A DNA stretch of 34,194 nucleotides, taken from the IMG/VR virus record IMGVR_UViG_2778261184_000007, positions 1 to 34,194 of that record; one strand, written 5' to 3'. The position numbers and the translations under genes are program-made. The notes under the pieces were generated by a model. That model did no database searches, was not told where the DNA came from, and worked only from the letters and a program-made list of their open reading frames with translations. Below are positions 1-11,694 of this stretch, piece after piece (position 1 is the stretch's first letter; the number at the start of each line of letters is the position of its first letter). Origin of the DNA: a virus. Its lineage: Duplodnaviria > Heunggongvirae > Uroviricota > Caudoviricetes.

Positions 1-50
1 TCTTCAGATATGTTATGAACGCACAGAAAGAGCATTAAGTTACATTGATG

Positions 51-1427
51 TTACCCAACAGAGGTTGACTCAAACATAGAAAAAATTAACCCTTTACCTT
101 CGCCAAACTCAGTCTCAATTTCATCAGAAACGGCAGATAAAATGCTACGCAGATCGACATCTCCGCCGCCGAACATATCGCCTAACGCTTGTTGTTGGTG
201 AATAAGTTCATCGTTAATTTTTTGCGCCAGTTTCTTGAAAGCGGCCCCCATTCGCTTAGCGCTTCGGTTGTTGGCAACAATAAACAGAGCAAGCGCTTCT
301 GCTTCCGGAGTGCTATCTCCAAACAATCCACGCTGTGCGATCACCTCTTCTACTGCCTGACCGTTATCTTTTGCTTCACGAACAAGGTTAATTGCTTCCT
401 GGAGTGCTGCTATCGCCTGTGTATCCAGGCCATTAACCTGCTCTATACCGTCCACTAAGCCTGTTACTGCGTCATGGTGAGCGTCGCCAGACAGCGACTG
501 CATTTGCGCAAAATCGCTGGCTGCCGTATTTAATGCGGTCAGGATATTACGCATTTCCGGATCTGGCTCTTCCGACACTAGCCGAACAAGCCTTTCATCC
601 TTGTACGCTTTGGCAAAAATTGCATTCTGGATGCGATCGATAAGCTGTTTCGTGGGACGCCCATCGGCAGTAAGCAAGCCTGCCGTCGCTGTATCGCCAA
701 TTTCGCGCAAAAACGCACGAATAAACGCATCATTGGACCGCGCCAGCAGATTTCCATCATCTGAAGGATTAAATAGCGCCATGACGCTCTCAGTGAGAAA
801 TTGCGCATCCGCATACGCTTTTTCACTTGCTGCCATCTCTTGCAGATCGCTAATGTTTGAATCGCGGGCAAATTGAGCGCGGTCTACATCTGTGAGTCTT
901 TCTCGCACTAGTACGGGCATAGACATTTGCGAAATTTCGTCAGGATTCAGACCAAACTCTTTCGCATGGTCGATCAGGTACTGGCGATACTCATCCGCCT
1001 GTCCTTGCTCATAGGCACGCCAGATACCCATACTCCTTCCGTTGCCGGATTCAACAACGTTGTCCGGACCAACTATCGGCGCTCCGTGGCTGCTCATACC
1101 GGAATCCGTTAATTGTGCCGGGCGTAAATTGGAGGCAATACGGTTAACCTGGAGTTTGCTGGATAGCCGGGTACGATCTCGTGGTTGGAGTTCTTCCGGG
1201 AAGGCCGGGTTAATCATACCGTCAAGGTTGTTCGAAATGATCAGACTGCTGGCATCAACGACCTTAAAAGCCGTCTTTACCTCTGCACCTTTGCTGGTGA
1301 CTACGTAGCTACTTCGCCCCAGGCGTGTTTCTTTCCTCTCTAATGAAGAAACCAGAGCAATGACGCTGTTAATATCTGCGGCCTCGGAAAGCGCAGAAGT
1401 AACTGATTTGTTCAAAATACACTCCAA
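51..1427 (-). CDS. 458-aa protein, distal gene of the dar-type (capsid-associated antirestriction) gene string; function not assignable
   Basis: Complete ORF with stop at 51-53; same strand and immediately downstream of the darA-like/ddrA-like genes; no recognisable catalytic motif. Preceded by a hairpin at 1485-1507. Confidence 0.5.
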   Translation of the reverse strand: MECILNKSVTSALSEAADINSVIALVSSLERKETRLGRSSYVVTSKGAEVKTAFKVVDASSLIISNNLDGMINPAFPEELQPRDRTRLSSKLQVNRIASNLRPAQLTDSGMSSHGAPIVGPDNVVESGNGRSMGIWRAYEQGQADEYRQYLIDHAKEFGLNPDEISQMSMPVLVRERLTDVDRAQFARDSNISDLQEMAASEKAYADAQFLTESVMALFNPSDDGNLLARSNDAFIRAFLREIGDTATAGLLTADGRPTKQLIDRIQNAIFAKAYKDERLVRLVSEEPDPEMRNILTALNTAASDFAQMQSLSGDAHHDAVTGLVDGIEQVNGLDTQAIAALQEAINLVREAKDNGQAVEEVIAQRGLFGDSTPEAEALALFIVANNRSAKRMGAAFKKLAQKINDELIHQQQALGDMFGGGDVDLRSILSAVSDEIETEFGEGKGLIFSMFESTSVG

Positions 1428-1484
1428 CTATAGAGAAAGCTGTGAGTGTAAAAAGAGTGTGATTTATGTGAGAACAGAGAAGTG

Positions 1485-1507
1485 AAAGGGGCATTTCGCC
1501 CCCTTTT
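1485..1507 (-). terminator. GC-rich hairpin (GGGGC-loop-GCCCC) between the ddrA-like stop and the next gene; candidate attenuator or bidirectional terminator
   Basis: Inverted repeat AAAGGGGC/GCCCCCTTT with 5-nt loop; T-run on the + strand side, U/C-rich on the - strand side. Confidence 0.35.
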
Positions 1508-1509
1508 GA

Positions 1510-1878
1510 TTACCCGGCATAACCGTTGGCTTTCACCCAGCTTATGGTCTGTTCTTTAGCCTGCTCCAACGTAAGGAACTCGCCAACATAGTTTGAGATC
1601 CCACGCAGCGCATCAATAAATTCCATTTGTGTGGACTTTGTGAACACACCGCCCAGGAAGTCAGTCACTATCTTAGGGACTTCATCTACAACAGGATCAG
1701 TCTGTTGTTGCGGTTCCGCTGCCGGTTGCGCGGCAGTCCCCAGGCCCAATTTCAGCATCACATCAACAATCTGCTTACCAATGGTGACGCGTTGCAATAC
1801 TGGCGCAGTTTTCTGCGCCTGCATTAGATCTGATAGCTCTTTACCTAATTTCAGGCGGTCTAAAACAGAGATGGTCAT
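1510..1878 (-). CDS. 122-aa small protein following darA-like gene (DdrA-position)
   Basis: ATG start overlaps the upstream gene stop by 1 nt (TAATG), implying translational coupling within the operon. Confidence 0.5.
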   Translation of the reverse strand: MTISVLDRLKLGKELSDLMQAQKTAPVLQRVTIGKQIVDVMLKLGLGTAAQPAAEPQQQTDPVVDEVPKIVTDFLGGVFTKSTQMEFIDALRGISNYVGEFLTLEQAKEQTISWVKANGYAG

Positions 1879-3803
1879 TAAGCACCTCCCTGCTGAATTT
1901 CAGCCAGAATGTTGATCAGGTAGTCAACTGCTGCACCCACAGTGGCTTCGTTCTCGTCGTATCGACCTGCACTGATTAGAGCATTTGCTGCTTCCTGTAC
2001 ATGATCAAGTTCAGTACTGATGACCGTCAGATCGCGGGATGTAAACTGCTCCGGAACGGATTTCAGGTACTCCAGCGCTTTATCTGCCTCCTGATCAGCT
2101 TCACTTGCTGATTCACCAGCTTCTTCTGGCTCCGGCTCCTGTTCTGTTGCTGGTTGTGGTTGTGATTCCGGCTCAACCACATGCTCTGTTTTTACTTCGA
2201 TTGAATGATTTTGAAGGGCGTTATACACGTCCATAATGAAAAGGTTCTCCCCATCACCAAGTGGATACGCCACGTTTGGAAACGCTTTGCGGAAAAGAAT
2301 TTTCACTTGCGCCTTGAATGTTTTCAGGTCACTGCCAAACAGGTCTACATAGCCATCAATATGTTTCGACATGCTGGACACAACCAATTGGCCTGCAAAA
2401 TCTTTCAGCTCATCTTCATCAGGAAGATAGAGCAACTCGTACTGGCTGACTTCTTCATCTGTCAGTTTACGGTCATACGTAATGATACCGTGACGAGCAT
2501 ATTCGTAATACTGATCAGCCTGGTCAGGACGATCAATCACGGCTTTATTTCCATCCGGCACAGCACCAACACCAGCCGGGCGAGATTGAAGTGCATAGTG
2601 GTATTTACCTACATCCTGGCTCTCTTGTTGTGATACTGGGTTCGTCTCGGGGTCTGTCTGTGGTGGTTCGGAGTCTTCCTGCTGGCCTGGTAACACATCA
2701 ACTTTATATTTATCTGCGTTATGCTCTCGGTAGGCTTTAAGTAATTTGGTTGCAGCATCTGCCAAACTGCCTCCTTTGACAGCACTGGCATCAATACTGA
2801 ATTTACCTTCAGGTGCTACTATCGTAACGAAATTGTCACTGCCGGACGTGACATAATTAACTTCAGCGCCATTATCCAGCACTGTTTTTCCGTCAATGGC
2901 AAGATTATGTTTTACATGTCGCAGCTGGTCACTAAACGCTCGCTCTTTCGTTTTTTCACCTTTAGCAGACAACAATTTATCGCGTTTTGCTTGTAATTCC
3001 TCGTTGATGGCTTTCTGGGCATCAAGTTTTTTTTGCATCTCCGTAAGAGCAGCACGCTTTTCAGTCAGCCCACGTTGCGCAACGTCCACCTGATCAATCA
3101 TTATTGACCGTTCTTCTGCCAGTTTATCTGCTTCATTGAGATAACTCTCAATATCTGCCTTCATTTTGTCCTGGCGCTCTTTTGCTTTCTTAAATTTTTC
3201 GCTGTTACGCTCAATCAAATTAGATAGCGCCTGGCATACCTGGCTTAAAGAAACATCTCTCCCACCAATCGGGGCGACAACGTGAGTTACGTTACGCTTA
3301 TTAAGTAAAAACTGAAATGCAACAAGCTCGTCGTTACTCTTTATTTTTGCCCCGTCAGCTGTTGGAGAGTGGAAAATTATGCTTGTACTCTGCCCGTCAG
3401 TAAGCGGTATCTGCGCGGTCAAAACAGGGATATTAGCTATCCGACGTACACGACCGATAATCGCACCACCAATACAATTACGTCCATTTTCATCGGTCCC
3501 AGCTTCATCAGTCCCTGCCATAATATTCGTACCATTCAGGCCACGATTCAGCGCACGGACGAAAGCTCGCATTGTTTGAGCTAACCGAATTCTGGTTGTA
3601 GTTATGGACTCAAACATAGCTTCGTCAGACACAACCAGAATTTCATTGCCCATATAGGCAAGCTCAATATCTTCTAAGGTCGCCGCCTCAAAAATCAGGT
3701 CATCTTCGTTTAATTCTTCTGAAGACCAGCGACTTGGCATATAGCCGGGGATCGTATCAGCAAAAGTAGACTGAATATTAATTCGTAAAGGATTGTTAAT
3801 CAT
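1878..3803 (-). CDS. darA: DarA-like capsid-internal antirestriction protein (about 641 aa from the ATG with best SD spacing)
   Basis: Large coiled-coil-rich protein in the position expected for darA in P1-family order (lydA-lydB-hdf-darA leftward from cin). Start chosen at the ATG 6 nt after GGAGG; the ORF track extends to 3842 on an alternative start. Assignment by synteny and size, not by alignment. Confidence 0.55.
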   Translation of the reverse strand: MINNPLRINIQSTFADTIPGYMPSRWSSEELNEDDLIFEAATLEDIELAYMGNEILVVSDEAMFESITTTRIRLAQTMRAFVRALNRGLNGTNIMAGTDEAGTDENGRNCIGGAIIGRVRRIANIPVLTAQIPLTDGQSTSIIFHSPTADGAKIKSNDELVAFQFLLNKRNVTHVVAPIGGRDVSLSQVCQALSNLIERNSEKFKKAKERQDKMKADIESYLNEADKLAEERSIMIDQVDVAQRGLTEKRAALTEMQKKLDAQKAINEELQAKRDKLLSAKGEKTKERAFSDQLRHVKHNLAIDGKTVLDNGAEVNYVTSGSDNFVTIVAPEGKFSIDASAVKGGSLADAATKLLKAYREHNADKYKVDVLPGQQEDSEPPQTDPETNPVSQQESQDVGKYHYALQSRPAGVGAVPDGNKAVIDRPDQADQYYEYARHGIITYDRKLTDEEVSQYELLYLPDEDELKDFAGQLVVSSMSKHIDGYVDLFGSDLKTFKAQVKILFRKAFPNVAYPLGDGENLFIMDVYNALQNHSIEVKTEHVVEPESQPQPATEQEPEPEEAGESASEADQEADKALEYLKSVPEQFTSRDLTVISTELDHVQEAANALISAGRYDENEATVGAAVDYLINILAEIQQGGA

Positions 3804-4416
3804 GCTCATCCTCCAGGCGCGCGATTTCTTCTTTAAGAGCACGTGTCTTAGCTACTTCCTGAGACAAGGCAGCTTTAACGTTACCCGTATCTTGCATTAC
3901 TTTGTCTGACTTGCTCTGGAGTTTAGACAGTTTGTCGTTAGCATTAGCGATATCTTCACGGAGTGCATCACGTGATTCTTTCGCTTCAGCTAATTTCTGA
4001 GCGTTAGATTTAACTCCCTGCCGCTTCTTATTTCCGTCATCAATATTTTTTGCTGCACGAGCAAGTTTTCGAGCTAATGACTTCTGGAAAGAAGTTGCTC
4101 CGCGATTAAATAAAGCCGCAAGAGATTGCCCCAAAGCCGACATTGTTTTTACTGGCTTGAACGGTACTGTTTTACCATTCAGTTTGATCCCAGATATATC
4201 ACCGGTATCGTTAACCTGAACTTCCATTGTCTGTTCATCAATACCAATAAGGGTAAACGTGCGCGTCATGATCCCATCTTTCTTCCTGCCATTACTGGCA
4301 GGGATCACCCTCGCTATCTTGTAACCACCTTTGCTGATTTCTTTGACGAGTTTTGCCAGCCCCTTTTCGTTTAACTCATCATAATTAAGAAGAACATAAT
4401 TATTCTTATTTGACAT
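3796..4416 (-). CDS. Hdf-position protein (about 206 aa) with C-terminal coiled coil, in dar-type operon
   Basis: ATG at 4416-4414 preceded by AAGGAG; the ORF track begins earlier on a GTG. Lies between the lydB-like and darA-like genes. Confidence 0.5.
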   Translation of the reverse strand: MSNKNNYVLLNYDELNEKGLAKLVKEISKGGYKIARVIPASNGRKKDGIMTRTFTLIGIDEQTMEVQVNDTGDISGIKLNGKTVPFKPVKTMSALGQSLAALFNRGATSFQKSLARKLARAAKNIDDGNKKRQGVKSNAQKLAEAKESRDALREDIANANDKLSKLQSKSDKVMQDTGNVKAALSQEVAKTRALKEEIARLEDEHD

Positions 4417-4852
4417 CCCAGTCTCCTTCACGCTTTCCGATCGTAAACTGGCGCTCTATGCAGTCATTGATAGGGAAAATGCGATAAAGCGGATTCAGTC
4501 GGCAGTTACCGTTAGTCAATGTGACTTTCAGATCCCACTTCGTTGGCTCAAGATATTTCGTATCGATGAGCAAATACTCTTCTCTCTCACCGCGTTTTGA
4601 GGCGTCAACTGGTCGCGTTTTCCCTGAAATAACCACAGATGGATTTTTCAGGTCTTGCAACCAATATTCGATTTGAGCATTGCTGACCCAGCTTCGCTTA
4701 ACACGTAGCGAAACAGGAAATGCTATAGCGGATTCTTTCACTACAGCGTCACCAATACTCAAAATCTCAACACTCTTGCGACGAAAAATGAAACGGTCAA
4801 TGATGGCAACAAATGCCATGATAAAAATGAAATAATTTCCAAAGTTACCCAT
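4406..4852 (-). CDS. lydB: LydB-like antiholin (148 aa)
   Basis: Follows and overlaps a 3-TM holin-like gene. Size and position match the P1 lydA-lydB pair next to cin as recalled. Confidence 0.5.
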   Translation of the reverse strand: MGNFGNYFIFIMAFVAIIDRFIFRRKSVEILSIGDAVVKESAIAFPVSLRVKRSWVSNAQIEYWLQDLKNPSVVISGKTRPVDASKRGEREEYLLIDTKYLEPTKWDLKVTLTNGNCRLNPLYRIFPINDCIERQFTIGKREGDWDVK

Positions 4853-5178
4853 TATTTCTCTCCACCTTTTCCCCCATTCGCTATTACGCTTAAGAGATTC
4901 AAGACGTTACTAGCTCTGGACTTCAAGCCCTGTAAAATTTCACTACCGTTGTTACTGGCAATCAGAACAACGCAGAAAATGATACCTTCAGGCCATTCTT
5001 GGCTAACCGCCACCCCATACCCCGCAAGCCCGGCTGTTACCGCAGTAAACAATTCACTCGCAAGATTGAGCAGGGACGCAGAAATGCGCCCATCTCTAAC
5101 TCCGAGAAGGAATACGCCGGTTCCACTTAGTAGGGATGTTATGACTACTACAGCCAGATTTTCATAATCTGCAAACAT
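4852..5178 (-). CDS. lydA: LydA-like holin (108 aa, three predicted transmembrane segments)
   Basis: Hydrophobic stretches LAVVVITSLLSGTGVFLLGV, LFTAVTAGLAGYGVAV and IIFCVVLIASN; charged C-terminus. First gene of the leftward operon. Confidence 0.55.
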   Translation of the reverse strand: MFADYENLAVVVITSLLSGTGVFLLGVRDGRISASLLNLASELFTAVTAGLAGYGVAVSQEWPEGIIFCVVLIASNNGSEILQGLKSRASNVLNLLSVIANGGKGGEK

Positions 5179-5281
5179 ACCCCTCCAGAAATAACATCTA
5201 ATGCGCCACTAACTTAGTCAGTTTGTTATTTCCTTACAGGACATCTTCTAGAATCGTATCCTTAGCATACAAGGGAGACAT

Positions 5282-5700
5282 ATGCTTATTGGATACATTC
5301 GCATATCAACAAATGACCAAAACACCGCTTTGCAACGCCCCCTTGAAAGCGCAGGATGTGAGCCAATTTTTGAGGGCAAAGCGAGTGGCAAAAAGGCTGA
5401 ACGCCAAGGGTTAAAAAAGGTTCTGCGTATGTTTTCCAGTGATGAAGCCTTGGTCGTATAGCAGTTAGAGCGGCTTGAGGGCAATTTAGTTGTGCTGCTG
5501 TAATCGCTGCGTGCCAGATGAATAAACCTTCTGAATCCCACTAATTCTATCGACATCTGTACACCAATGCAGCGCTCACGATGCAATTAAGATCAACATT
5601 ACAGGGATGGTTTTCATTAGTGGTCGGTCCGACACAAGATGCATCGAATTGATGCGCCGCGCGATAAGTGTATCTATCCCCTCGAGATAAACTACATCGA
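5282..5700 (+). pseudogene. Decayed serine DNA invertase (Hin/Gin/Cin/Pin family) remnant
   Basis: ATG at 5282 opens MLIGYIRISTNDQNTALQ...ALVV, then an in-frame TAG where the family has Trp (LVVW-KLDRLGRS here reads LVV*QLERLEGN). Further downstream TNSIDICTPMQR (cf. TDSIDTSTPMGR in the intact invertase) appears in a shifted frame. Below the 60-aa ORF-track cutoff. Confidence 0.7.
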
Positions 5701-5713
5701 CGCGGCATTTGTA

Positions 5714-6286
5714 TTACAACTCAGTTTGAGTTTGGCGCTTCTCTACAGGGTGATAACGATAAATCGTCGATACACCGATATCGTAAATAATTGCCAACTG
5801 TTTCCTGCTGTAGCCATTTTCGATCAACCTCGCTATTTGCTCATGTTGTTCTTTTGTCAACTTCGGGCGACGTCCGCCAATGCGTCCCTGTTCGCGTGCA
5901 GCTGCCAGTCCAGCCAGGGTTCTCTCAACAATTAATTCACGTTCCATTTCTGCTAAAGCCCCCATGACGTGAAAAAAGAAACGCCCCATGGGTGTTGAGG
6001 TGTCAATGCTGTCTGTCAGACTACGAAAATTAACACCTTTTTCCCGCAGCTCCTCAATAAGTGTGATCAGGTGTTTCATACTTCTGCCAAGCCTATCCAG
6101 CTTCCAGACAACCAGCGTATCTCCTTCTGATAACGTTCTGAGCAGCTTTTTCAAGCCTGGTCTGGCTGACTTTGTTCCGCTTATTTTATCTTCAAAAATC
6201 AGTTCACATCCTGCGCAGTTCAGTGCATTTCTTTGTAAATCTGTGTTTTGGTCATTTGTTGACACACGAATGTAGCCAATTTGCAT
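5714..6286 (-). CDS. cin: Cin/Min-type serine DNA invertase (190 aa from ATG)
   Basis: MQIGYIRVSTNDQNTDLQRNAL... with catalytic-serine motif, conserved LVVWKLDRLGRS and FFFHVMGALAEMERELI blocks, and C-terminal HTH; SD AAAGAGG upstream of ATG at 6286. The ORF track adds three codons from a TTG. Confidence 0.9.
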   Translation of the reverse strand: MQIGYIRVSTNDQNTDLQRNALNCAGCELIFEDKISGTKSARPGLKKLLRTLSEGDTLVVWKLDRLGRSMKHLITLIEELREKGVNFRSLTDSIDTSTPMGRFFFHVMGALAEMERELIVERTLAGLAAAREQGRIGGRRPKLTKEQHEQIARLIENGYSRKQLAIIYDIGVSTIYRYHPVEKRQTQTEL

Positions 6287-6340: not shown

Positions 6341-6366
6341 AAGACTAAAACGTTGGTTTGGGGGAA
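6341..6366. other. Invertase crossover site 1 (cix/mix-like 26-bp imperfect palindrome), nearest the invertase gene
   Basis: Bottom strand reads TTCCCCCAAACC-AA-CGTTTTAGTCTT; the AAACC..GGTTT core resembles hix/gix/cix half-sites. Confidence 0.7.
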
Positions 6367-6864
6367 GGCTCTGCGCTGCCCGTTGGTGTGCCCGTTCCGT
6401 GGCCCTCAGCCACACCGCCAACGGGATGGCTGAAATGTAACGGAGCAGCATTTTCTGCTGAAGAATACCCAGAACTGGCAAAGGCTTATCCCACCAATAA
6501 ATTACCGGATTTACGCGGTGAGTTTATTCGCGGCTGGGATGACGGACGTGGTGTGGATGCGGGGAGAACAATATTATCCGCTCAAGGTGATGCCATACGT
6601 AATATCTATGGTGAGTTCAGAACTGTAAACACTGAAAATTATTCAATATGGGAATCAGTAGGCTCGTTTAAGGGGGCAGTGGTGCCTTTGAGTCCCTCAA
6701 CGAACAATAGTTATTTCTCCTTAATCAGAAGTATGGTGACAGAAAGAACAGACGGCACTGTTTACCCAAAAGTGATTGGCCTTGATGCTTCAAGAATTGT
6801 TCCAACTGCAAACGAAAACCGCCCACGCAACATTGCGTTTAATTACATCGTAAGAGCCGCATGA
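6358..6864 (+). CDS. Promoterless tail-fibre C-terminal tip cassette 1 (silent in this orientation)
   Basis: Frame opens at the TTG inside the crossover site (no ATG); conserved block GEGSALPVGVPVPWP...GWDDGRGVD, unique centre, conserved end RPRNIAFNYIVRAA. Confidence 0.75.
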   Translation: MGEGSALPVGVPVPWPSATPPTGWLKCNGAAFSAEEYPELAKAYPTNKLPDLRGEFIRGWDDGRGVDAGRTILSAQGDAIRNIYGEFRTVNTENYSIWESVGSFKGAVVPLSPSTNNSYFSLIRSMVTERTDGTVYPKVIGLDASRIVPTANENRPRNIAFNYIVRAA

Positions 6865-6883
6865 AAACGTTGGTTTGGGGGAA
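6858..6883. other. Invertase crossover site 2
   Basis: Same half-site TTCCCCCAAACC-AA-CGTTT on bottom strand, straddling the cassette 1 stop and the cassette 2 TTG. Confidence 0.7.
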
Positions 6884-7342
6884 GGCTCTGCACTGCCCGT
6901 TGGTGTGCCCGTTCCGTGGCCCTTAGAAATACCGCCAACGGGCTGGCTGAAATGTAACGGCGCAGCATTTTCTTCTGAAATGTACCCCAGGCTGGCAAAG
7001 GCTTATCCGACCAATAAATTACCGGATTTACGCGGTGAATTTATCCGTGGCTGGGATGACGGACGGGGCGTTGATAATGGACGCAACCTACTGTCTGCGC
7101 AGTCTGACGCTATTCAGAATATAGTTGGCACTTTTGGGCGTACTCAGCTTTTTAAAGATACGCTGAATTCAGGGCCATTTAGTCAAACTGACTCTATATT
7201 ATCAGTAGGCTTACAACCAACTGAGATCATTGAAGGATATGGTGCTTCTGTATGGACATTCGACGCCTCTCGCTCAGTTCGCACAGCGTCTGAAACACGC
7301 CCCCATAACATTGCGTTTAATTACATCGTAAGGGCGGCATAA
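6875..7342 (+). CDS. Promoterless tail-fibre C-terminal tip cassette 2
   Basis: Same conserved N- and C-terminal blocks with a distinct centre (…NGRNLLSAQSDAIQNIVGTFGRTQLFKDTLNSGPFSQTDSILSVGLQPTEIIEGYGASVWTFDASRSV…). Confidence 0.75.
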   Translation: MGEGSALPVGVPVPWPLEIPPTGWLKCNGAAFSSEMYPRLAKAYPTNKLPDLRGEFIRGWDDGRGVDNGRNLLSAQSDAIQNIVGTFGRTQLFKDTLNSGPFSQTDSILSVGLQPTEIIEGYGASVWTFDASRSVRTASETRPHNIAFNYIVRAA

Positions 7343-7361
7343 AAACGTTGGTTTGGGGGAA
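7336..7361. other. Invertase crossover site 3
   Basis: TTCCCCCAAACC-AA-CGTTTTTATGCC on bottom strand. Confidence 0.7.
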
Positions 7362-7814
7362 GGCTCTGCGCTGCCCGTTGGTGTGCCCGTTCCATGGCCC
7401 TCAGCCACACCGCCAACGGGATGGCTGAAATGTAACGGCGCAGCATTTTCTTCTGAAAAGTACCCAAATCTGGCAAAGGCTTACCCTACTAATAAATTGC
7501 CGGATTTACGCGGTGAATTTATTCGTGGCTGGGATGACGGACGTGGTGTGGATGCCGGGCGACAATTATTATCTTCACAGGGGGATGCAATAAGAAATAT
7601 TGAGGGGTTCGCAGATGGCGGGATTGGCATGTCTTTTGATGCAATCAGAGGGGCTTTTTATGATGCAGGAACACGATCTGCGAGAATGCCGAATAACACA
7701 ACTGATATAGGCAAAACCGATGACCTTGGATTCGACGCCTCTCGTGTCGTGCCAACAGCTAATGAAAACCGTCCTCGTAATATTGCCTTTAATTATATTG
7801 TGAGGGCGGCATAA
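7353..7814 (+). CDS. Promoterless tail-fibre C-terminal tip cassette 3
   Basis: Conserved ends, unique centre. Confidence 0.75.
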   Translation: MGEGSALPVGVPVPWPSATPPTGWLKCNGAAFSSEKYPNLAKAYPTNKLPDLRGEFIRGWDDGRGVDAGRQLLSSQGDAIRNIEGFADGGIGMSFDAIRGAFYDAGTRSARMPNNTTDIGKTDDLGFDASRVVPTANENRPRNIAFNYIVRAA

Positions 7815-7833
7815 AAACGTTGGTTTGGGAGAA
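7808..7833. other. Invertase crossover site 4
   Basis: Same motif with one substitution in the conserved half (GGGAGAAGG instead of GGGGGAAGG). Confidence 0.65.
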
Positions 7834-8301
7834 GGCTCGGCGCTGCCCGTTGGTGTGCCTGTTCCATGGCCCTCAGCCACGCCGCCAACGGGGTGGCTGA
7901 AATGTAACGGTGCAGCATTTTCTTCTGAAATGTACCCCAATCTGGCAAAGGCCTACCCCACCAATAAATTACCGGATTTACGCGGTGAATTTATCCGTGG
8001 CTGGGATGACGGACGAGGCGTTGATGCTGGACGTGCTTTATTGAGCATTCAGACTGGGATGCTGGAAAAACATCGCCATATTGTTGTTGCCAACGATGGG
8101 TATGATTCAAAAGAGGAATGGGAACTGGCGACAATCTTCAGAAGAGCATACACGCAAGGCCGGGGGCTTGATGCTGCTGATGTCGGAGGGACTCTGATTC
8201 CATCACCAACGCTTCATTCACGAGGAAGTATTGGTAACACAGGTGGTAGTGAAACCCGCCCCCGCAATATTGCATTTAACTATATCGTGAGGGCGGCTTA
8301 G
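7825..8301 (+). CDS. Promoterless tail-fibre C-terminal tip cassette 4
   Basis: Conserved ends, unique centre; converges on the chaperone gene with a 6-bp gap. Confidence 0.75.
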   Translation: MGEGSALPVGVPVPWPSATPPTGWLKCNGAAFSSEMYPNLAKAYPTNKLPDLRGEFIRGWDDGRGVDAGRALLSIQTGMLEKHRHIVVANDGYDSKEEWELATIFRRAYTQGRGLDAADVGGTLIPSPTLHSRGSIGNTGGSETRPRNIAFNYIVRAA

Positions 8302-8307
8302 TTATAT

Positions 8308-8919
8308 TCAACTGGCTGATGCCAGTGGTATTTCCGGCAAGTTGATATCTGGTGCCATGTTTATATCCATTGCGTTCAGCGCGTCTATATAATCCAGCAC
8401 GGCATTAAGCCGGGTGGTTTCTGCCTGCGTCAACTTCCGCCCGGCCCGCAACTTCAACTGAATCAGACTTATGGAATCCATTGCCGCATCAGCCAGTGAC
8501 TGGCGCTTGGTTTCTGCCGCTTCTACTGCGGCACGATGTTGTGCCTCAGTATCTGTCACCCATTTTTCACCATCCCATTTATCGTATGGTGTTAACGGGG
8601 CGATAGTGGTTGTATTTTTCGGGTAGTCACCCAGCGCCGTGATTTCTTCGGTGTTTCCCGTGTCAGTGCTATAGACGGTTTCACCACGATGGTCTGGCGC
8701 ATACTCCCATGAATTTAAATCCTCCGAACGGCGAATAGCATAGCCAGATTTATGTGCGCCTGGGGCATCTAAACAGGAATTAGCCGGAATACCAACACCC
8801 ACAGCAAGATATTCAGTTGACTCTGAAATATATTCCCGTGTCTCACCATCATAGTTATAAACGATGATGTTTCCTGCCTGTACGGCAATAAGATCATTAT
8901 TTAATATCGCGTTATTCAT
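8308..8919 (-). CDS. Tail-fibre assembly chaperone (Tfa/U-like, 203 aa)
   Basis: N-terminal region typical of Mu/P1 U and lambda Tfa-type proteins (…YDGETREYISESTEYLAVGVGIPANS…); ATG overlaps the stop of the preceding cassette by 1 nt. Confidence 0.65.
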   Translation of the reverse strand: MNNAILNNDLIAVQAGNIIVYNYDGETREYISESTEYLAVGVGIPANSCLDAPGAHKSGYAIRRSEDLNSWEYAPDHRGETVYSTDTGNTEEITALGDYPKNTTTIAPLTPYDKWDGEKWVTDTEAQHRAAVEAAETKRQSLADAAMDSISLIQLKLRAGRKLTQAETTRLNAVLDYIDALNAMDINMAPDINLPEIPLASAS

Positions 8920-9377
8920 TATGCGGCTCTCACAATATAATTGAAGGCAATATTGCGTGGACGGGTTTCATTCCCCCCTGAGGATTCCGTTCTGTATTGA
9001 CTGGAAAATTTACCATTAATCGCCCCTCCCTGGACGGCGTTATCTGTCGACAACAGACTATCCCCCCCTCTGTCATTTGGCACCAATACCGTGTTATCCC
9101 ACGCGTCCCATGACCGAATATTATGATAATGACTTCCAGTTAACCACCCCTGTATGCTTAAGATGCCCCTTCCCGCATCCACCCCGCGCCCATCATCCCA
9201 ACCGCGAATAAATTCTCCCCGTAAATCCGGTAATTTATTAGTGGGGTAAACCTTTGCCAGATTTGGGTACTTTTCAGAAGAAAATGCTGCTCCGTTACAT
9301 TTTAGCCAGCCCGTTGGTGGTGTTTCTAAGGGCCACGGAACGGGCACGCCAACGGGCAATGCTGAGCCTTCCCCCAA
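8919..9377 (-). CDS. Promoterless tail-fibre C-terminal tip cassette 5 (minus orientation, between the expressed tip and the chaperone)
   Basis: Begins at the TTG within crossover site 5; conserved N block, unique centre (…WLTGSHYHNIRSWDAWDNTVLVPNDRGGDS…), conserved RPRNIAFNYIVRAA end. Confidence 0.75.
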   Translation of the reverse strand: MGEGSALPVGVPVPWPLETPPTGWLKCNGAAFSSEKYPNLAKVYPTNKLPDLRGEFIRGWDDGRGVDAGRGILSIQGWLTGSHYHNIRSWDAWDNTVLVPNDRGGDSLLSTDNAVQGGAINGKFSSQYRTESSGGNETRPRNIAFNYIVRAA

Positions 9378-9394
9378 ACCAACGTTTCTATGCC
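9369..9394. other. Invertase crossover site 5 (inverted relative to sites 1-4)
   Basis: Top strand TTCCCCCAAACC-AA-CGTTTCTATGCC. Confidence 0.7.
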
Positions 9395-11694
9395 GCTCTT
9401 ACGATGTAATTAAATGCAATATTACGCGGACGAGCTGATACATAAGCCCACCAGTCATATTTTTGGGCACCTTTACTGGATGCATCAAATATCCACTTTT
9501 TGCCATTTATGGCCCCCCATTGATTAGAGGTTAAAGTGTCACCAAATCCGTATTGTGGTGAGCTGAGTGAACTGATATCCCCAGTATCATTATCATCAAA
9601 ACCGGAGACGATAGTGCCTTCCTGAAATGAAAGTATCTCTCGTCCTGCATCAATACCTCGTCCGTCATCCCAGCCACGGATAAATTCGCCCCGTAAATCC
9701 GGTAATTTATTGGTCGGATAAGCCTTTGCCAGTCTGGGGTACATTTCAGAAGAAAATGCTGCTCCGTTACATTTCAGCCATCCCGTTGGCGGTGTGGCTG
9801 AGGGCCATGGAACGGGCACACCAACGGGCAGCGCAGAGCCTTCCCCCAAACCAAGGTAATCAAGAACGCCCTGAGTGCTGGTTTTACCAAGAATGGCACG
9901 CCCAACACTTGTCAACGCGGTTAACGCGGCACGATCTTCCCCTGTAAAATATGGGAGTTTATCTGCTGATGTAGCAAGCTCTGCCAGCGCCGTCAGGGTG
10001 GCATCCTTCGGTTGCTTACCCGCAAGCGCGTTAGTCATGGTGGTCGCAAAATTCGGGTCGTTGCCCAGCGCCGCCGCTAACTCGTTCAGCGTATTCAGTG
10101 CGTCAGGCGACGAGTCTACAAGTGCGGCAATCGCGGCCATAACGAAAGCCGTGCTTGCGATCTGGGTATTATTAGTCCCCTGTGGCGCTGTTGGTGTTGT
10201 TGGCGTTCCGGTCAGTGCCGGGCTGTTTAATGGTGCTTTCTTGTTCGTTTCATCCATTACCGCCTTAACAGCTTTTGGTGTCGCTGCCAGCGTTTCAGAC
10301 GTGCTGTTCGTGGCGCTACTAAGCTGAACTATCCCTTTTTGTGCCGTCGTAGCGTCCTGTGCTGTGTATTTGCCATTAGCAAGATCATACGCTGCCTTAA
10401 CTGCCTTAGGCGTTGCTGCAAGAGTTTCAGACGAGCTGTTGATGGCACTACTAAGTTGTACAATGCCGCTCTGAGTGAGGCTGGCTGCTGGTACGTCGGT
10501 AATCTGGCTCCAAGGGTGGTTATGGCTGGCGTTGGCACACTCTGCAAAGCGAGCACTTAACCAGGAACTCAACCAACCGTCTCCCCACTGACTGCCATAC
10601 ACATCACCACCGGTGCTATAACGTGCATCCCCTATCAGAAGCTCTTTTAATGAGGTAATACTTCTTTCCGTGAAAAGGAACACACGCTGGCCGTTGGCGA
10701 ACACGGACAATGCGCCGTCTCCTTCATGTTTAATTCCGGTATCGTCATCGCCCAGCGTCAGAGAGTTCCCCCCCAGTCTGTTGTTGGTATTGATGCCGAA
10801 TGCAGAGGTCTGCGGCAGATTAAGTTTACCTGTCATAGTGTCGCCATCTTTGGCAACTTTTTCTCCAATCAGGCGAGTCACTGTCGCGGAAAAGTTCGGA
10901 TCATTACCAAGCGCGGCGGCCAGTTCGTTCAGAGTGTTAAGTGCGTCAGGCGATGAGTCTACAAGTTCAGCAATCGCAGCCATAACGAAAGCTGTGCTTG
11001 CGATCTGAGTGTTATTCGTTCCCTTAGTCGCCGTTGGTGCTGTTGGCGTCCCTGTCAGATTCGGGCTGTTGATCGGGGCTTTTGTATCAACCAAATCATG
11101 GAGAGTTTTGACAGCCAGAGGTGTAGCCGCTTTTCTTTCTTCTGTACTGCTTATTTCATTAGAGAATTCGACACCAACAGCACGGTTAACCCGGTATTTA
11201 AGCACAATCATTTCTTTAGTCACAGCCGTTGCGCCGCTAGGCACGATAACTCGACATAATTCAATTTGATTCTGCCCAATAGTATTGTCCGTACGCGCGT
11301 AAATTCTTGCAGCACTGACAGAAGATGCGCTATCTACCTGTGTCGTTTTTACACCATGTTCAAAATTGGCTTCCAGCACAATAATGTTGGTAGCCCCTGC
11401 CTTTACCGAGACAGTCACATCTTCTATTTGCTGAACGGATATCTGAACATTATTTACATCTACTGAAGCAGCCCCTTTACCTTCTGAGTTTTCAGAAGTT
11501 ATACGGACACTCAACCCTGTGCCGGGAACCGGTTCAAATCCACAGTAAAAGCCAGGCAAAACAATATTTTTAAGTTTTCTGTTAAGAGCCGAACTACTAT
11601 AGAGTTCGAAATATTGAACATCAGCAAGCAACGGCTGTGAGACACCAGAGGATAGTGTCATTATGTTGTTCGTTTTATCAGCACCCATAATCAA
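9388..11694 (-). CDS. Tail fibre protein (S-like, 768 aa): constant N-terminal part fused to the currently expressed variable tip
   Basis: Repeated fibre motifs (GIVQLSS..NS.SETLAATPKAVKA three times; NTLNELAAALGNDPNF twice); C-terminal 150 aa carry the same conserved blocks as the cassettes; ATGA overlap with the upstream R-like gene. Confidence 0.85.
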   Translation of the reverse strand: MIMGADKTNNIMTLSSGVSQPLLADVQYFELYSSSALNRKLKNIVLPGFYCGFEPVPGTGLSVRITSENSEGKGAASVDVNNVQISVQQIEDVTVSVKAGATNIIVLEANFEHGVKTTQVDSASSVSAARIYARTDNTIGQNQIELCRVIVPSGATAVTKEMIVLKYRVNRAVGVEFSNEISSTEERKAATPLAVKTLHDLVDTKAPINSPNLTGTPTAPTATKGTNNTQIASTAFVMAAIAELVDSSPDALNTLNELAAALGNDPNFSATVTRLIGEKVAKDGDTMTGKLNLPQTSAFGINTNNRLGGNSLTLGDDDTGIKHEGDGALSVFANGQRVFLFTERSITSLKELLIGDARYSTGGDVYGSQWGDGWLSSWLSARFAECANASHNHPWSQITDVPAASLTQSGIVQLSSAINSSSETLAATPKAVKAAYDLANGKYTAQDATTAQKGIVQLSSATNSTSETLAATPKAVKAVMDETNKKAPLNSPALTGTPTTPTAPQGTNNTQIASTAFVMAAIAALVDSSPDALNTLNELAAALGNDPNFATTMTNALAGKQPKDATLTALAELATSADKLPYFTGEDRAALTALTSVGRAILGKTSTQGVLDYLGLGEGSALPVGVPVPWPSATPPTGWLKCNGAAFSSEMYPRLAKAYPTNKLPDLRGEFIRGWDDGRGIDAGREILSFQEGTIVSGFDDNDTGDISSLSSPQYGFGDTLTSNQWGAINGKKWIFDASSKGAQKYDWWAYVSARPRNIAFNYIVRAA
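9841..9866. other. Invertase crossover site 6, inside the expressed tail-fibre gene at the constant/variable junction
   Basis: Top strand TTCCCCCAAACC-AA-GGTAATCAAGAA: conserved half-site intact, other half diverged because it is constrained by coding sequence (…DYLGLGEGS…). Confidence 0.65.
10050..10225. repeat. Intragenic direct repeat copy A within the tail-fibre gene (about 175 bp)
   Basis: Roughly 85% identical to 10890-11065 by eye; encodes the duplicated …NTQIASTAFVMAAIA.LVDSSPDALNTLNELAAALGNDPNF… block. Confidence 0.7.
10890..11065. repeat. Intragenic direct repeat copy B within the tail-fibre gene
   Basis: Partner of the 10050-10225 copy. Confidence 0.7.

Follow-up and report, generated by a model that had tools for sequence, protein, structure and literature searches.

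The DNA analysed here (the window, 34,194 nt in full) is part of a phage-plasmid of the D6/P1 type. Its positions 1-5576 are 96.5% identical to phage D6, reaching 99-100% over the last 3 kb before the feature of interest, and the backbone genes on this side follow one another in the order ddrB, ddrA, darA, hdf, lydB, lydA. Beyond lydA lies the remnant of a serine invertase gene, called psi-cin below. It is followed by an intact invertase gene, min, by a series of tail-fibre C-terminal segments, a tail-fibre assembly gene and the tail-fibre gene S. Homology to the D6 backbone resumes inside S, at about position 10998 (blastn against D6). psi-cin and min are convergent, and the gap between them is filled by two further pieces: a decayed fragment of a tail-fibre segment and a sequence resembling the right end of a Mu-like phage. 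The features are listed in Table 1.

Table 1. Features of the psi-cin/min locus (positions in the window).
Feature	Position	Strand	Basis
lydA, holin gene, last backbone gene ahead of the remnant	4852-5178	-	ORF list; D6 and plasmid annotations
Former cin leader, with ribosome-binding site AAGGGAG at 5271-5277	5179-5281	+	sequence; alignments
psi-cin, covering codons 1 to ~102 of a serine invertase gene of the cin type, non-functional	5282-5577	+	tblastn; Pfam; alignment to D6 and P1 cin; substitution pattern
59-codon ORF opening MLIGYIRISTNDQ and ending at TAG 5459-5461	5282-5461	+	ORF list
Counterpart of the 72-bp recombinational enhancer of P1 cin (cin nt 19-90)	5300-5368	+	P1 annotation; sequence comparison
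Decayed remnant (3′ end) of a C-terminal tail-fibre segment	5568-5649	-	inverted repeat I9; tblastn
Putative right-hand terminus (attR type) of a transposable phage resembling Mu, terminal 5′-TG at 5650-5651 (+)	5650-5713	-	homology; alignment with Mu
min, working DNA invertase gene, 190 aa from ATG 6286 (Resolvase and HTH_7)	5714-6286	-	Pfam
Multiple-inversion region with six mix sites and six alternative tail-fibre C-terminal segments	6347-9860		sequence pattern
Tail-fibre assembly gene	8308-8919	-	within inversion region
Tail-fibre gene S, constant part now fused to one variable segment	9388-11694	-	ORF list

The invertase remnant next to lydA

In both P1 and D6 an intact cin gene encoding 186 aa (D6_31 in D6) directly follows lydA, and neither phage carries min. 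psi-cin has the same position and strand: it is oriented opposite to lydA and reads towards the tail-fibre inversion region, as cin does in the two phages. Because position and strand are those of the intact cin of P1 and D6, we regard psi-cin as the resident gene of this locus. A preliminary description of the DNA had suggested looking for an intact paralogue at this position in related genomes, and it is found in the cin genes of these two phages.

Sequence comparisons agree with this placement. By tblastn, 5282-5577 matches D6 Cin at 68 of 102 aa (E 6e-34) and the product of the neighbouring min gene at 55 of 102 aa (E 2e-29). Over codons 1-102 the identity to D6 cin is 67% for amino acids and 85% for nucleotides, and the nearest relatives of psi-cin are the cin genes of D6 and P1. 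The conceptual translation matches the Pfam Resolvase profile PF00239 with an E value of 1.6e-13, covering profile positions 2-111 of 145, and the catalytic serine motif YIRISTNDQ is retained. The preliminary description had recognised a 59-codon plus-strand reading frame with a serine-recombinase N-terminus. That frame is present, and the similarity extends over codons 1-102 rather than being limited to a few residues.

The remnant is heavily damaged. Three stops lie in its frame (TAG 5459, TAA 5501 and TGA 5519), and relative to D6 cin there are two in-frame deletions, one of 3 bp after 5339 and one of 9 bp at about 5484. As had been stated at the outset, the TAG falls on a family tryptophan, the Trp of VVWKLDRLGR in both D6 Cin and the neighbouring invertase. 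Family blocks downstream of the TAG, such as TNSIDICTPMQR, were also correctly noticed, but the shifted frames assigned to them are not needed: these blocks share the frame of the psi-cin ATG, and a single frame across 5282-5577 explains them all. Homology to invertases reaches codon ~102, at about 5577, and thus stops 137 bp short of the min stop codon (5714-5716). The distance of about 15 bp first given between the remnant and the intact gene has to be revised, as 5578-5700 is not invertase-derived.

Residues from about 103 onwards are missing from psi-cin, so that it lacks the last part of its catalytic domain and all of the helix-turn-helix DNA-binding domain (HTH_7), and a sequence search of the 34,194 nt found no 3′ half of cin anywhere. 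Neither cixL nor any crossover-like site is present in 5282-5713; in P1 and D6, cixL overlaps the 3′ end of cin. An orphan crossover site near the remnant, for which a search had been suggested, is thus not there, all six mix sites lying within 6347-9860. With its distal part missing, three premature stops and cixL gone, psi-cin cannot act as a recombinase, and we identify 5282-5577 on these comparisons as a non-functional pseudogene of the resident cin. Its evolution is neutral, in contrast to that of P1 and D6 cin. Relative to D6 cin it shows 46 substitutions, distributed 15/14/17 over codon positions 1/2/3, whereas the intact cin genes of P1 and D6 differ over the same stretch by 1/0/19.

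On the lydA side, an identity of 99-100% to D6 extends to about 5255, where it breaks off within the leader, and a single weak promoter-like site is predicted at 5141-5168. In the enhancer counterpart within the gene, nt 22 has changed from G to A (G22A) and 3 bp have been lost where the two halves meet; in most sister plasmids the deletion is of 2 bp. We predict this element to be inactive. A simple scan with the Fis-site consensus did not resolve both sites in it and was left out of account. Overall, psi-cin shares with the cin genes of P1 and D6 (Din family, internal Fis-dependent enhancer, cixL at the 3′ end) the position, the strand and the lydA neighbour. Unlike them, psi-cin is cut after codon ~102, carries stops and deletions, lacks the HTH domain and cixL and has an altered enhancer.

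The interval between psi-cin and min

The first of the two pieces in the gap derives from a tail-fibre segment. Its translation FDASCVGPTTNENHPCNVDLNCIVSAA aligns with FDASRVVPTANENRPRNIAFNYIVRAA of the segment at 7353-7814 (17 of 27 aa, E 1e-8, tblastn). The fragment belongs to the Min-type segment family and not to the Sv type of P1 and D6. It overlaps the end of psi-cin by a microhomology of about 10 bp, and the junction is common to the window and plasmid pNCYU-26-73-5. An invertase-mediated origin of this junction, at the quasi-crossover site ACACCAATGG in cin, was considered and set aside: the hybrid site would need an extra 8-bp deletion, and microhomology is the simpler explanation. 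The microhomology itself is compatible with an invertase-mediated event without demonstrating one.

The second piece directly adjoins the min stop codon. It contains two repeats like R1 and R2 of phage Mu, TGATGCGCCGCGCGATAA at the terminus and GAGATAAAC further in. This piece (TGATGCGCCGCGCGATAAGTG...GAGATAAAC...) can be aligned to the Mu right end (NC_000929.1, TGAAGCGGCGCACGAAAAACG...CGATAAATG...), and both the terminal TG and the second repeat then stand at equal offset in the two. A GC-clamped "hairpin" that had been considered 3′ of min consists in fact of these terminal repeats.

Exactly from 5650 onwards, the sequence is homologous to prophage ends of the Mu-like kind and to the ends of viral contigs. 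Among 50 IMG/VR loci with this end, 46 distinct flanks were found, the boundary being sharp with unrelated DNA beyond it, and four contigs begin exactly at the terminal TG. Of 5426 complete E. coli genomes, 722 contain a related unit of invertase plus end, with an identity of ≥99% in about 600 records, and most of these copies are chromosomal and lie beside different host genes. In E. coli MS20677 the related unit is part of a prophage inserted between ascB and hycI, which encodes an rve transposase, an AAA ATPase, Mu Gam, Mor and a Mu-type portal (Portal_Mu). This prophage is flanked by a 5-6 bp target duplication, CGTTG(C), and its other end reads ...CATTTATCTCAAGTCTAATCA. The prophage predicted in PV468777.1 is mis-delimited and includes host genes, and it is uninformative on the context of the end.

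Taken together, the features of the Mu-like prophage, the varied flanks and the target duplication, all of which come from related ends (73-88% identical) and not from the window's own copy, lead us to identify 5650-5713 as the terminus of a transposable Mu-like phage. At the DNA level min is 88% identical to the modules at the ends of Mu-like prophages. By this reading, the last genes of the phage are those of the tail fibre, the invertible region and the invertase, the Mu order without com/mom. No intact tail-fibre segment was found 3′ of min-like invertase genes of other species in 80 genome loci.

The comparison with Mu itself shows both likeness and difference. With the right end of Mu (attR, R1-R2) the window shares the terminal TG/CA, an R1-like repeat and a CGATAAATG-like repeat at the offset of R2, and the order of tail fibre, invertible region, invertase and end parallels the S-U genes, G segment, gin and end of Mu. 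Unlike in Mu, the end is an orphan in a P1/D6-type plasmid, with no left end, transposase or target duplication, and no com/mom separate it from the invertase gene. Compared with the ends of active-looking prophages, that of the window also has a 14-nt deletion by the min stop.

The intact invertase gene and its inversion region

The product of the intact gene matches the invertase of pJIE250-3 at 188 of 190 aa and that of pMCR_SCKP-LL83 at 189 of 190. The pJIE250-3 invertase is 98.5% identical to p15B Min (PMC6906374), and the inversion region of pMCR_SCKP-LL83 is 99% identical to the p15B min region (PMC5786510). Identity to D6 Cin, on the other hand, is only 75%. The gene at 5714-6286, initially taken for cin, is accordingly assigned by these alignments as an orthologue of p15B-type Min and not as cin. 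Between min and its P1-type copy dN is 0.002 and dS 0.108, values that mark it as a gene under strong purifying selection.

The mix sites lie at 6347, 6864, 7342 and 7814 on the plus strand and at 9367-9388 and 9839-9860 on the minus strand. Their form AAAACGTTGGTTTGGGGGAAGG has six matches in the window and none in shuffled sequences. Each site heads a tail-fibre C-terminal segment of roughly 155 aa, an organisation that matches the six-site Min system. Min would invert the DNA at these six sites, presumably with Fis and an enhancer inside the 5′ end of min, and inversion would fuse one of the six C-terminal segments to S.

psi-cin in related plasmids and the age of the locus

About 15-18 complete plasmids of E. 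coli and Salmonella, roughly 90 kb in size, match the region of the remnant at 98.9-99.8%. Seventeen independent complete E. coli plasmids cover 5150-5760 over the full length at the same level of identity. In one carrier, pPEC399_3 (99.8% identical across 5150-5760), the RefSeq annotation (PGAP) of psi-cin is "recombinase family protein; incomplete; missing C-terminus". The order of psi-cin, gap and min is also found in P1-like plasmids and phages, such as pMCR_SCKP-LL83, pJIE250-3 and vB_EcoM-813R1, where psi-cin codons 1-59 are followed by about 130 bp and then by the 3′ end of min.

The alleles fall into distinct lineages. That of the window belongs to the D6 lineage and is 76-80% identical to the P1/p15B type. 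P1-type copies keep codons 1-59 and the window copy 43 codons more (1-102), the P1 type having an internal deletion of about 147 bp that covers cin codons 60-102 and the junction with the tail-fibre fragment. A third lineage is represented by pNCYU-26-73-5, and the L220 type keeps only 35 nt of psi-cin. In PLSDB, about 120 plasmids carry the P1-type interval from psi-cin to min and 14 the type of the window. Each lineage bears lesions of its own: the TAG at the Trp codon in the window, a stop at codon 9 in the P1 type and, in pNCYU-26-73-5, where the Trp codon is kept, separate frameshifts. Retention in at least three diverged lineages is long for useless phage DNA; as a counterpoint to the view of psi-cin as a neutral scar, it gives some room for a residual role.

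Divergence was then compared along the locus. The backbone up to about 5255 has a dS of 0.01 relative to D6, and psi-cin a K of 0.17 relative to D6 cin. Against P1-type copies, K is 0.24-0.27 for psi-cin and the adjoining fragment, and dS is 0.11 for min. The three adjacent pieces, backbone, psi-cin and min, thus differ in age. It follows from these unequal divergences that psi-cin was already old when the block recombined into a D6-like backbone.

Alternative explanations for the remnant

The persistence of the remnant in three lineages that are 20-30% diverged could mean that it is kept for a role in cis, either as a spare Fis-dependent enhancer for Min or as a promoter that reads antisense into min and tunes inversion. 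It still has an intact ribosome-binding site and ATG, with a weak promoter-like site ahead of them, and two blocks are better conserved than the rest, at 5344-5373 (right half of the enhancer homologue) and at 5638-5667. We nevertheless consider such a role unlikely. In a permutation test the conservation peaks fall short of significance (p = 0.086), and the remnant has diverged no more slowly than neighbouring genes have at synonymous sites. The enhancer homologue carries G22A and the 3-bp deletion (2 bp in most sister plasmids), codons 60-102 have been lost from the P1 type, and the L220 type is reduced to its 35 nt. No convincing terminator, promoter or RNA family was recognised: the stretch separating the convergent genes folds with a z-score of -0.41 and has only weak terminator-like hairpins, and Rfam gave no matches. 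Moreover, the psi-cin enhancer of p15B is reportedly inactive in experiments and was reactivated by two substitutions. One of the better-conserved blocks coincides with the Mu-like terminal repeat. Overall, our comparisons yielded no evidence for a residual function.

The tail-to-tail arrangement of two invertase genes of different lineages could also be read in reverse, with min as the resident invertase and psi-cin as what is left of a second, incoming system. This is very improbable. It is the remnant, and not min, that has the position, the strand and the upstream neighbour of cin in P1 and D6, and the cin genes of these phages are its closest relatives. On the 3′ side of min, by contrast, lies the foreign Mu-like terminus, in keeping with the 88% DNA identity of min to modules at the ends of Mu-like prophages.

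Synthesis of the 59-residue N-terminal peptide as a small regulator, for example one poisoning Min dimers, has even less in its favour. A good ribosome-binding site and ATG and the retained catalytic-serine motif would fit with it, but the reading frame does not persist among relatives. Of the 17 near-identical E. coli plasmids, 16 are one base longer across the region of the 59-codon ORF. In pKOr024_2, the one plasmid in which this base was located, it is a sixth C in the run 5340-5344 and creates a stop at codon 23. The stop at codon 9 in the P1 type, the frameshifts in pNCYU-26-73-5 and the neutral substitution pattern point the same way. On these alignments the 59-codon ORF is not conserved, and its absence from relatives largely refutes a function of the peptide.

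Errors of sequencing or assembly that mask a second, intact invertase gene can practically be dismissed: apart from the general possibility and a C run (5340-5344) that varies between assemblies nothing speaks for them, whereas the same stops and deletions recur in both sister plasmids aligned, 17 complete plasmids match 5150-5760, the gene breaks off at codon ~102, where unrelated DNA follows, and the 46 substitutions are spread evenly over the codon positions.

Discussion

A remnant of this kind is already known. The counterpart in p15B, a truncated 5′ cin-like region adjoining min, was reportedly named psi-cin by Sandmeier et al. in 1991, and an annotation pipeline flags the copy of a sister plasmid as a pseudogene. 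In p15B, from E. coli 15T-, the truncated 5′ part of cin stands tail to tail with an intact min, and psi-cin, placed between lydA and min, is accompanied by a six-site inversion region. The window has the same layout, a truncated 5′ region of cin convergent with an intact min that serves six sites; the likeness to p15B is drawn through the P1 notes and through plasmids that are reportedly about 99% identical to the p15B region and have this layout. According to the notes in the P1 RefSeq record, nt 7147-7408 of p15B (X62121) are 89% identical to the P1 cin promoter and the first ~170 nt of the gene, and the match to the min enhancer in p15B is a separate one, at nt 6463-6533. The window copy differs from that of p15B, here compared indirectly, in being a D6-lineage allele with codons 1-102 instead of 1-59 and in having different lesions. 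A literature search returned nothing relevant on psi-cin or on a Mu-like end beside min, the papers Sandmeier 1991/1992 and Lobocka 2004 being outside its reach. As an ordinary neutral pseudogene, psi-cin is in itself of little weight, and what the present analysis adds is the Mu-like terminus and the tail-fibre fragment.

A further parallel is found in prophage Phi4 of E. coli EC958, in which the sole invertase is truncated and inversion has been proposed to occur in trans (PMC4134206). In both cases a serine-invertase remnant without its HTH domain lies beside an invertible tail-fibre region served by another enzyme. Unlike in Phi4, an intact invertase gene lies 137 bp away in the window, and the junctions indicate how the remnant came to be truncated.

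We propose, with a probability of roughly 85%, that psi-cin is the scar left when a Mu-like right-end module carrying min replaced the resident tail-fibre module. A Mu-like phage whose right end consisted of S, a multi-segment invertible region, min and the terminus would have transposed into a tail-fibre C-terminal segment beside cin, with this right end facing cin. The terminus at 5650 would still adjoin 82 bp of the target (5568-5649). Homologous recombination between the two S genes would then have discarded the remaining Mu-like genome together with the old C segment, and a deletion would have brought the target segment's stop codon up against cin codon ~102. Redundant and truncated, cin would have decayed neutrally from then on. 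Homologous recombination would subsequently have carried the composite of psi-cin, segment fragment, Mu end and min between backbones of the P1-like and the D6-like kind. The order of transposition, S-S recombination and deletion is one that we infer from the junctions. The left end of the Mu-like phage is absent, which makes a target duplication uncheckable in this window.

Of the two origins offered in the preliminary description, a second inversion system or an exchange of modules at the invertase locus, the exchange stands. The word "second" does not fit the remnant, which is the resident cin, and the roles are reversed. The tail-fibre fragment is of the Min-type family and not of the P1/D6 Sv type, and for this reason the resident may have had a Min-like module already; more than one round of replacement is possible.

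Two other loci carry comparable junctions. Four D6-like viral contigs are identical to the lineage of the window up to 5316 (nt 35 of psi-cin), and past this point they have a different Mu-like end (74% identical) and a Min that is 84% identical. In a P2-like prophage (with FI, FII, T, U and D), a Mu-like end abuts a 3′ fragment of the prophage's own invertase gene, which begins STPMGRF and has the same orientation as min. This geometry is the one that the capture model predicts when the resident invertase gene lies downstream of its invertible region. These two independent scars support capture as a general process. With three independent junction types now seen for captures of Mu-like ends, we lean, with less confidence than for psi-cin itself, towards a recurrent process in which phage-plasmids of the P1/D6 type and P2-like prophages renew their switching modules by capturing the right ends of Mu-like phages; Min of p15B would itself be such a captured end.

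Read in this manner, the junctions between resident cin, tail-fibre fragment, Mu-like terminus and min become a record of the history of the locus, and the longer D6-lineage copy in the window preserves junctions that are partly deleted in the p15B-type copy. For annotation they carry a warning, as what is labelled "cin" in many plasmids of the P1-like and D6-like kinds is min and has a Mu-like origin. Capture of a Mu-like end is a testable mechanism by which modules for host-range switching could cross between unrelated families of temperate phages, and it would help to explain the long-known homology between the G region of Mu and the C inversion region of P1.

A Mu-like phage end between psi-cin and min

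Immediately behind min, the intact invertase gene, stands an orphan Mu-like phage right end, and its presence implies that the entire min/multiple-inversion module is a captured end of such a transposable phage. On its other side, this end adjoins the remnant of a tail-fibre C-terminal segment, itself bordering psi-cin, the decayed 5′ remnant of the resident cin invertase gene, and the remnant was probably the target of transposition.

Features of the psi-cin/min locus and the tail-fibre gene S
Feature	Position in window (strand)	Remarks
Tail-fibre C-terminal segment, decayed last ~27 codons	5568-5649 (-)	between psi-cin and the Mu-like end
Orphan right end of Mu-like transposable phage	5650-5713	directly after min stop codon; terminal TG, R1/R2-like repeats
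Multiple-inversion region	6347-9860	mix crossover sites: 6; alternative tail-fibre C-terminal segments: 6
Internal direct repeats, 80% identical	10033-10239 and 10876-11082	constant part of S

Junctions of a similar kind were found in other loci. Four IMG/VR D6-like contigs (L220:11780-12725, L225, L229 and L209) are identical to the window as far as 5316 (psi-cin nt 35), at which point their sequence passes immediately into a distinct Mu-like end, whose Min is 84% identical. This junction records one of two events: another capture at this locus, independent of the window's, or an adjacent deletion mediated by transposase. In a P2-like prophage (L181:8470-8800, also L101:2070-2425), the Mu-like end carrying min abuts a 3′ fragment of the prophage's own invertase. 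That fragment begins with STPMGRF, the same codon region in which psi-cin ends in the window, and the breakpoints coincide.

A Mu-like prophage is present in E. coli MS20677 (L235:6880-17990). Its early genes (ner-like, transposase, B-like, gam and mor) and late genes diverge from a central region, and mor adjoins one terminus; in phage Mu, by contrast, early and late genes share one direction.

A 1268 nt Moraxella osloensis contig (L010) contains an enterobacterial-type Min-like invertase, the start of a mix segment and a Mu-like end. The flank of that end is the one found in two E. coli-type viral contigs, and the presence of this sequence in the Moraxella assembly is probably due to contamination.

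Sequence variation in the invertase and anti-restriction genes

The C run at 5340-5344 of psi-cin comprises 5 C in the window and in plasmid pPEC399_3, and 6 C in pKOr024_2. The longer run is probably also present in 15 other sister plasmids, each one base longer over this region. This variation is homopolymer slippage inside a pseudogene. In phage vB_EcoM-813R1 (L004:5311-5882), loss of one base in an A run divides the min-like gene into 'Hin1' and 'Hin2'; this phage would be without an intact invertase, unless the split is a sequencing error.

Within the darA/ddrA region, otherwise 99-100% identical to D6, patches at 1651-2250 are only 77-90% identical, reflecting local mosaicism of the anti-restriction genes.

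The multiple-inversion region

The region is of the p15B type, shufflon-like, and lies within a D6-type backbone. The + strand holds four silent segments and the - strand another; the remaining one (9388-9860) is now joined to S. In pPEC399_3 (L007:2650-3100), the first segment beyond the first mix site differs (gp53-like), despite 99.8% identity over psi-cin and min. Segment content is therefore variable among near-identical plasmids.
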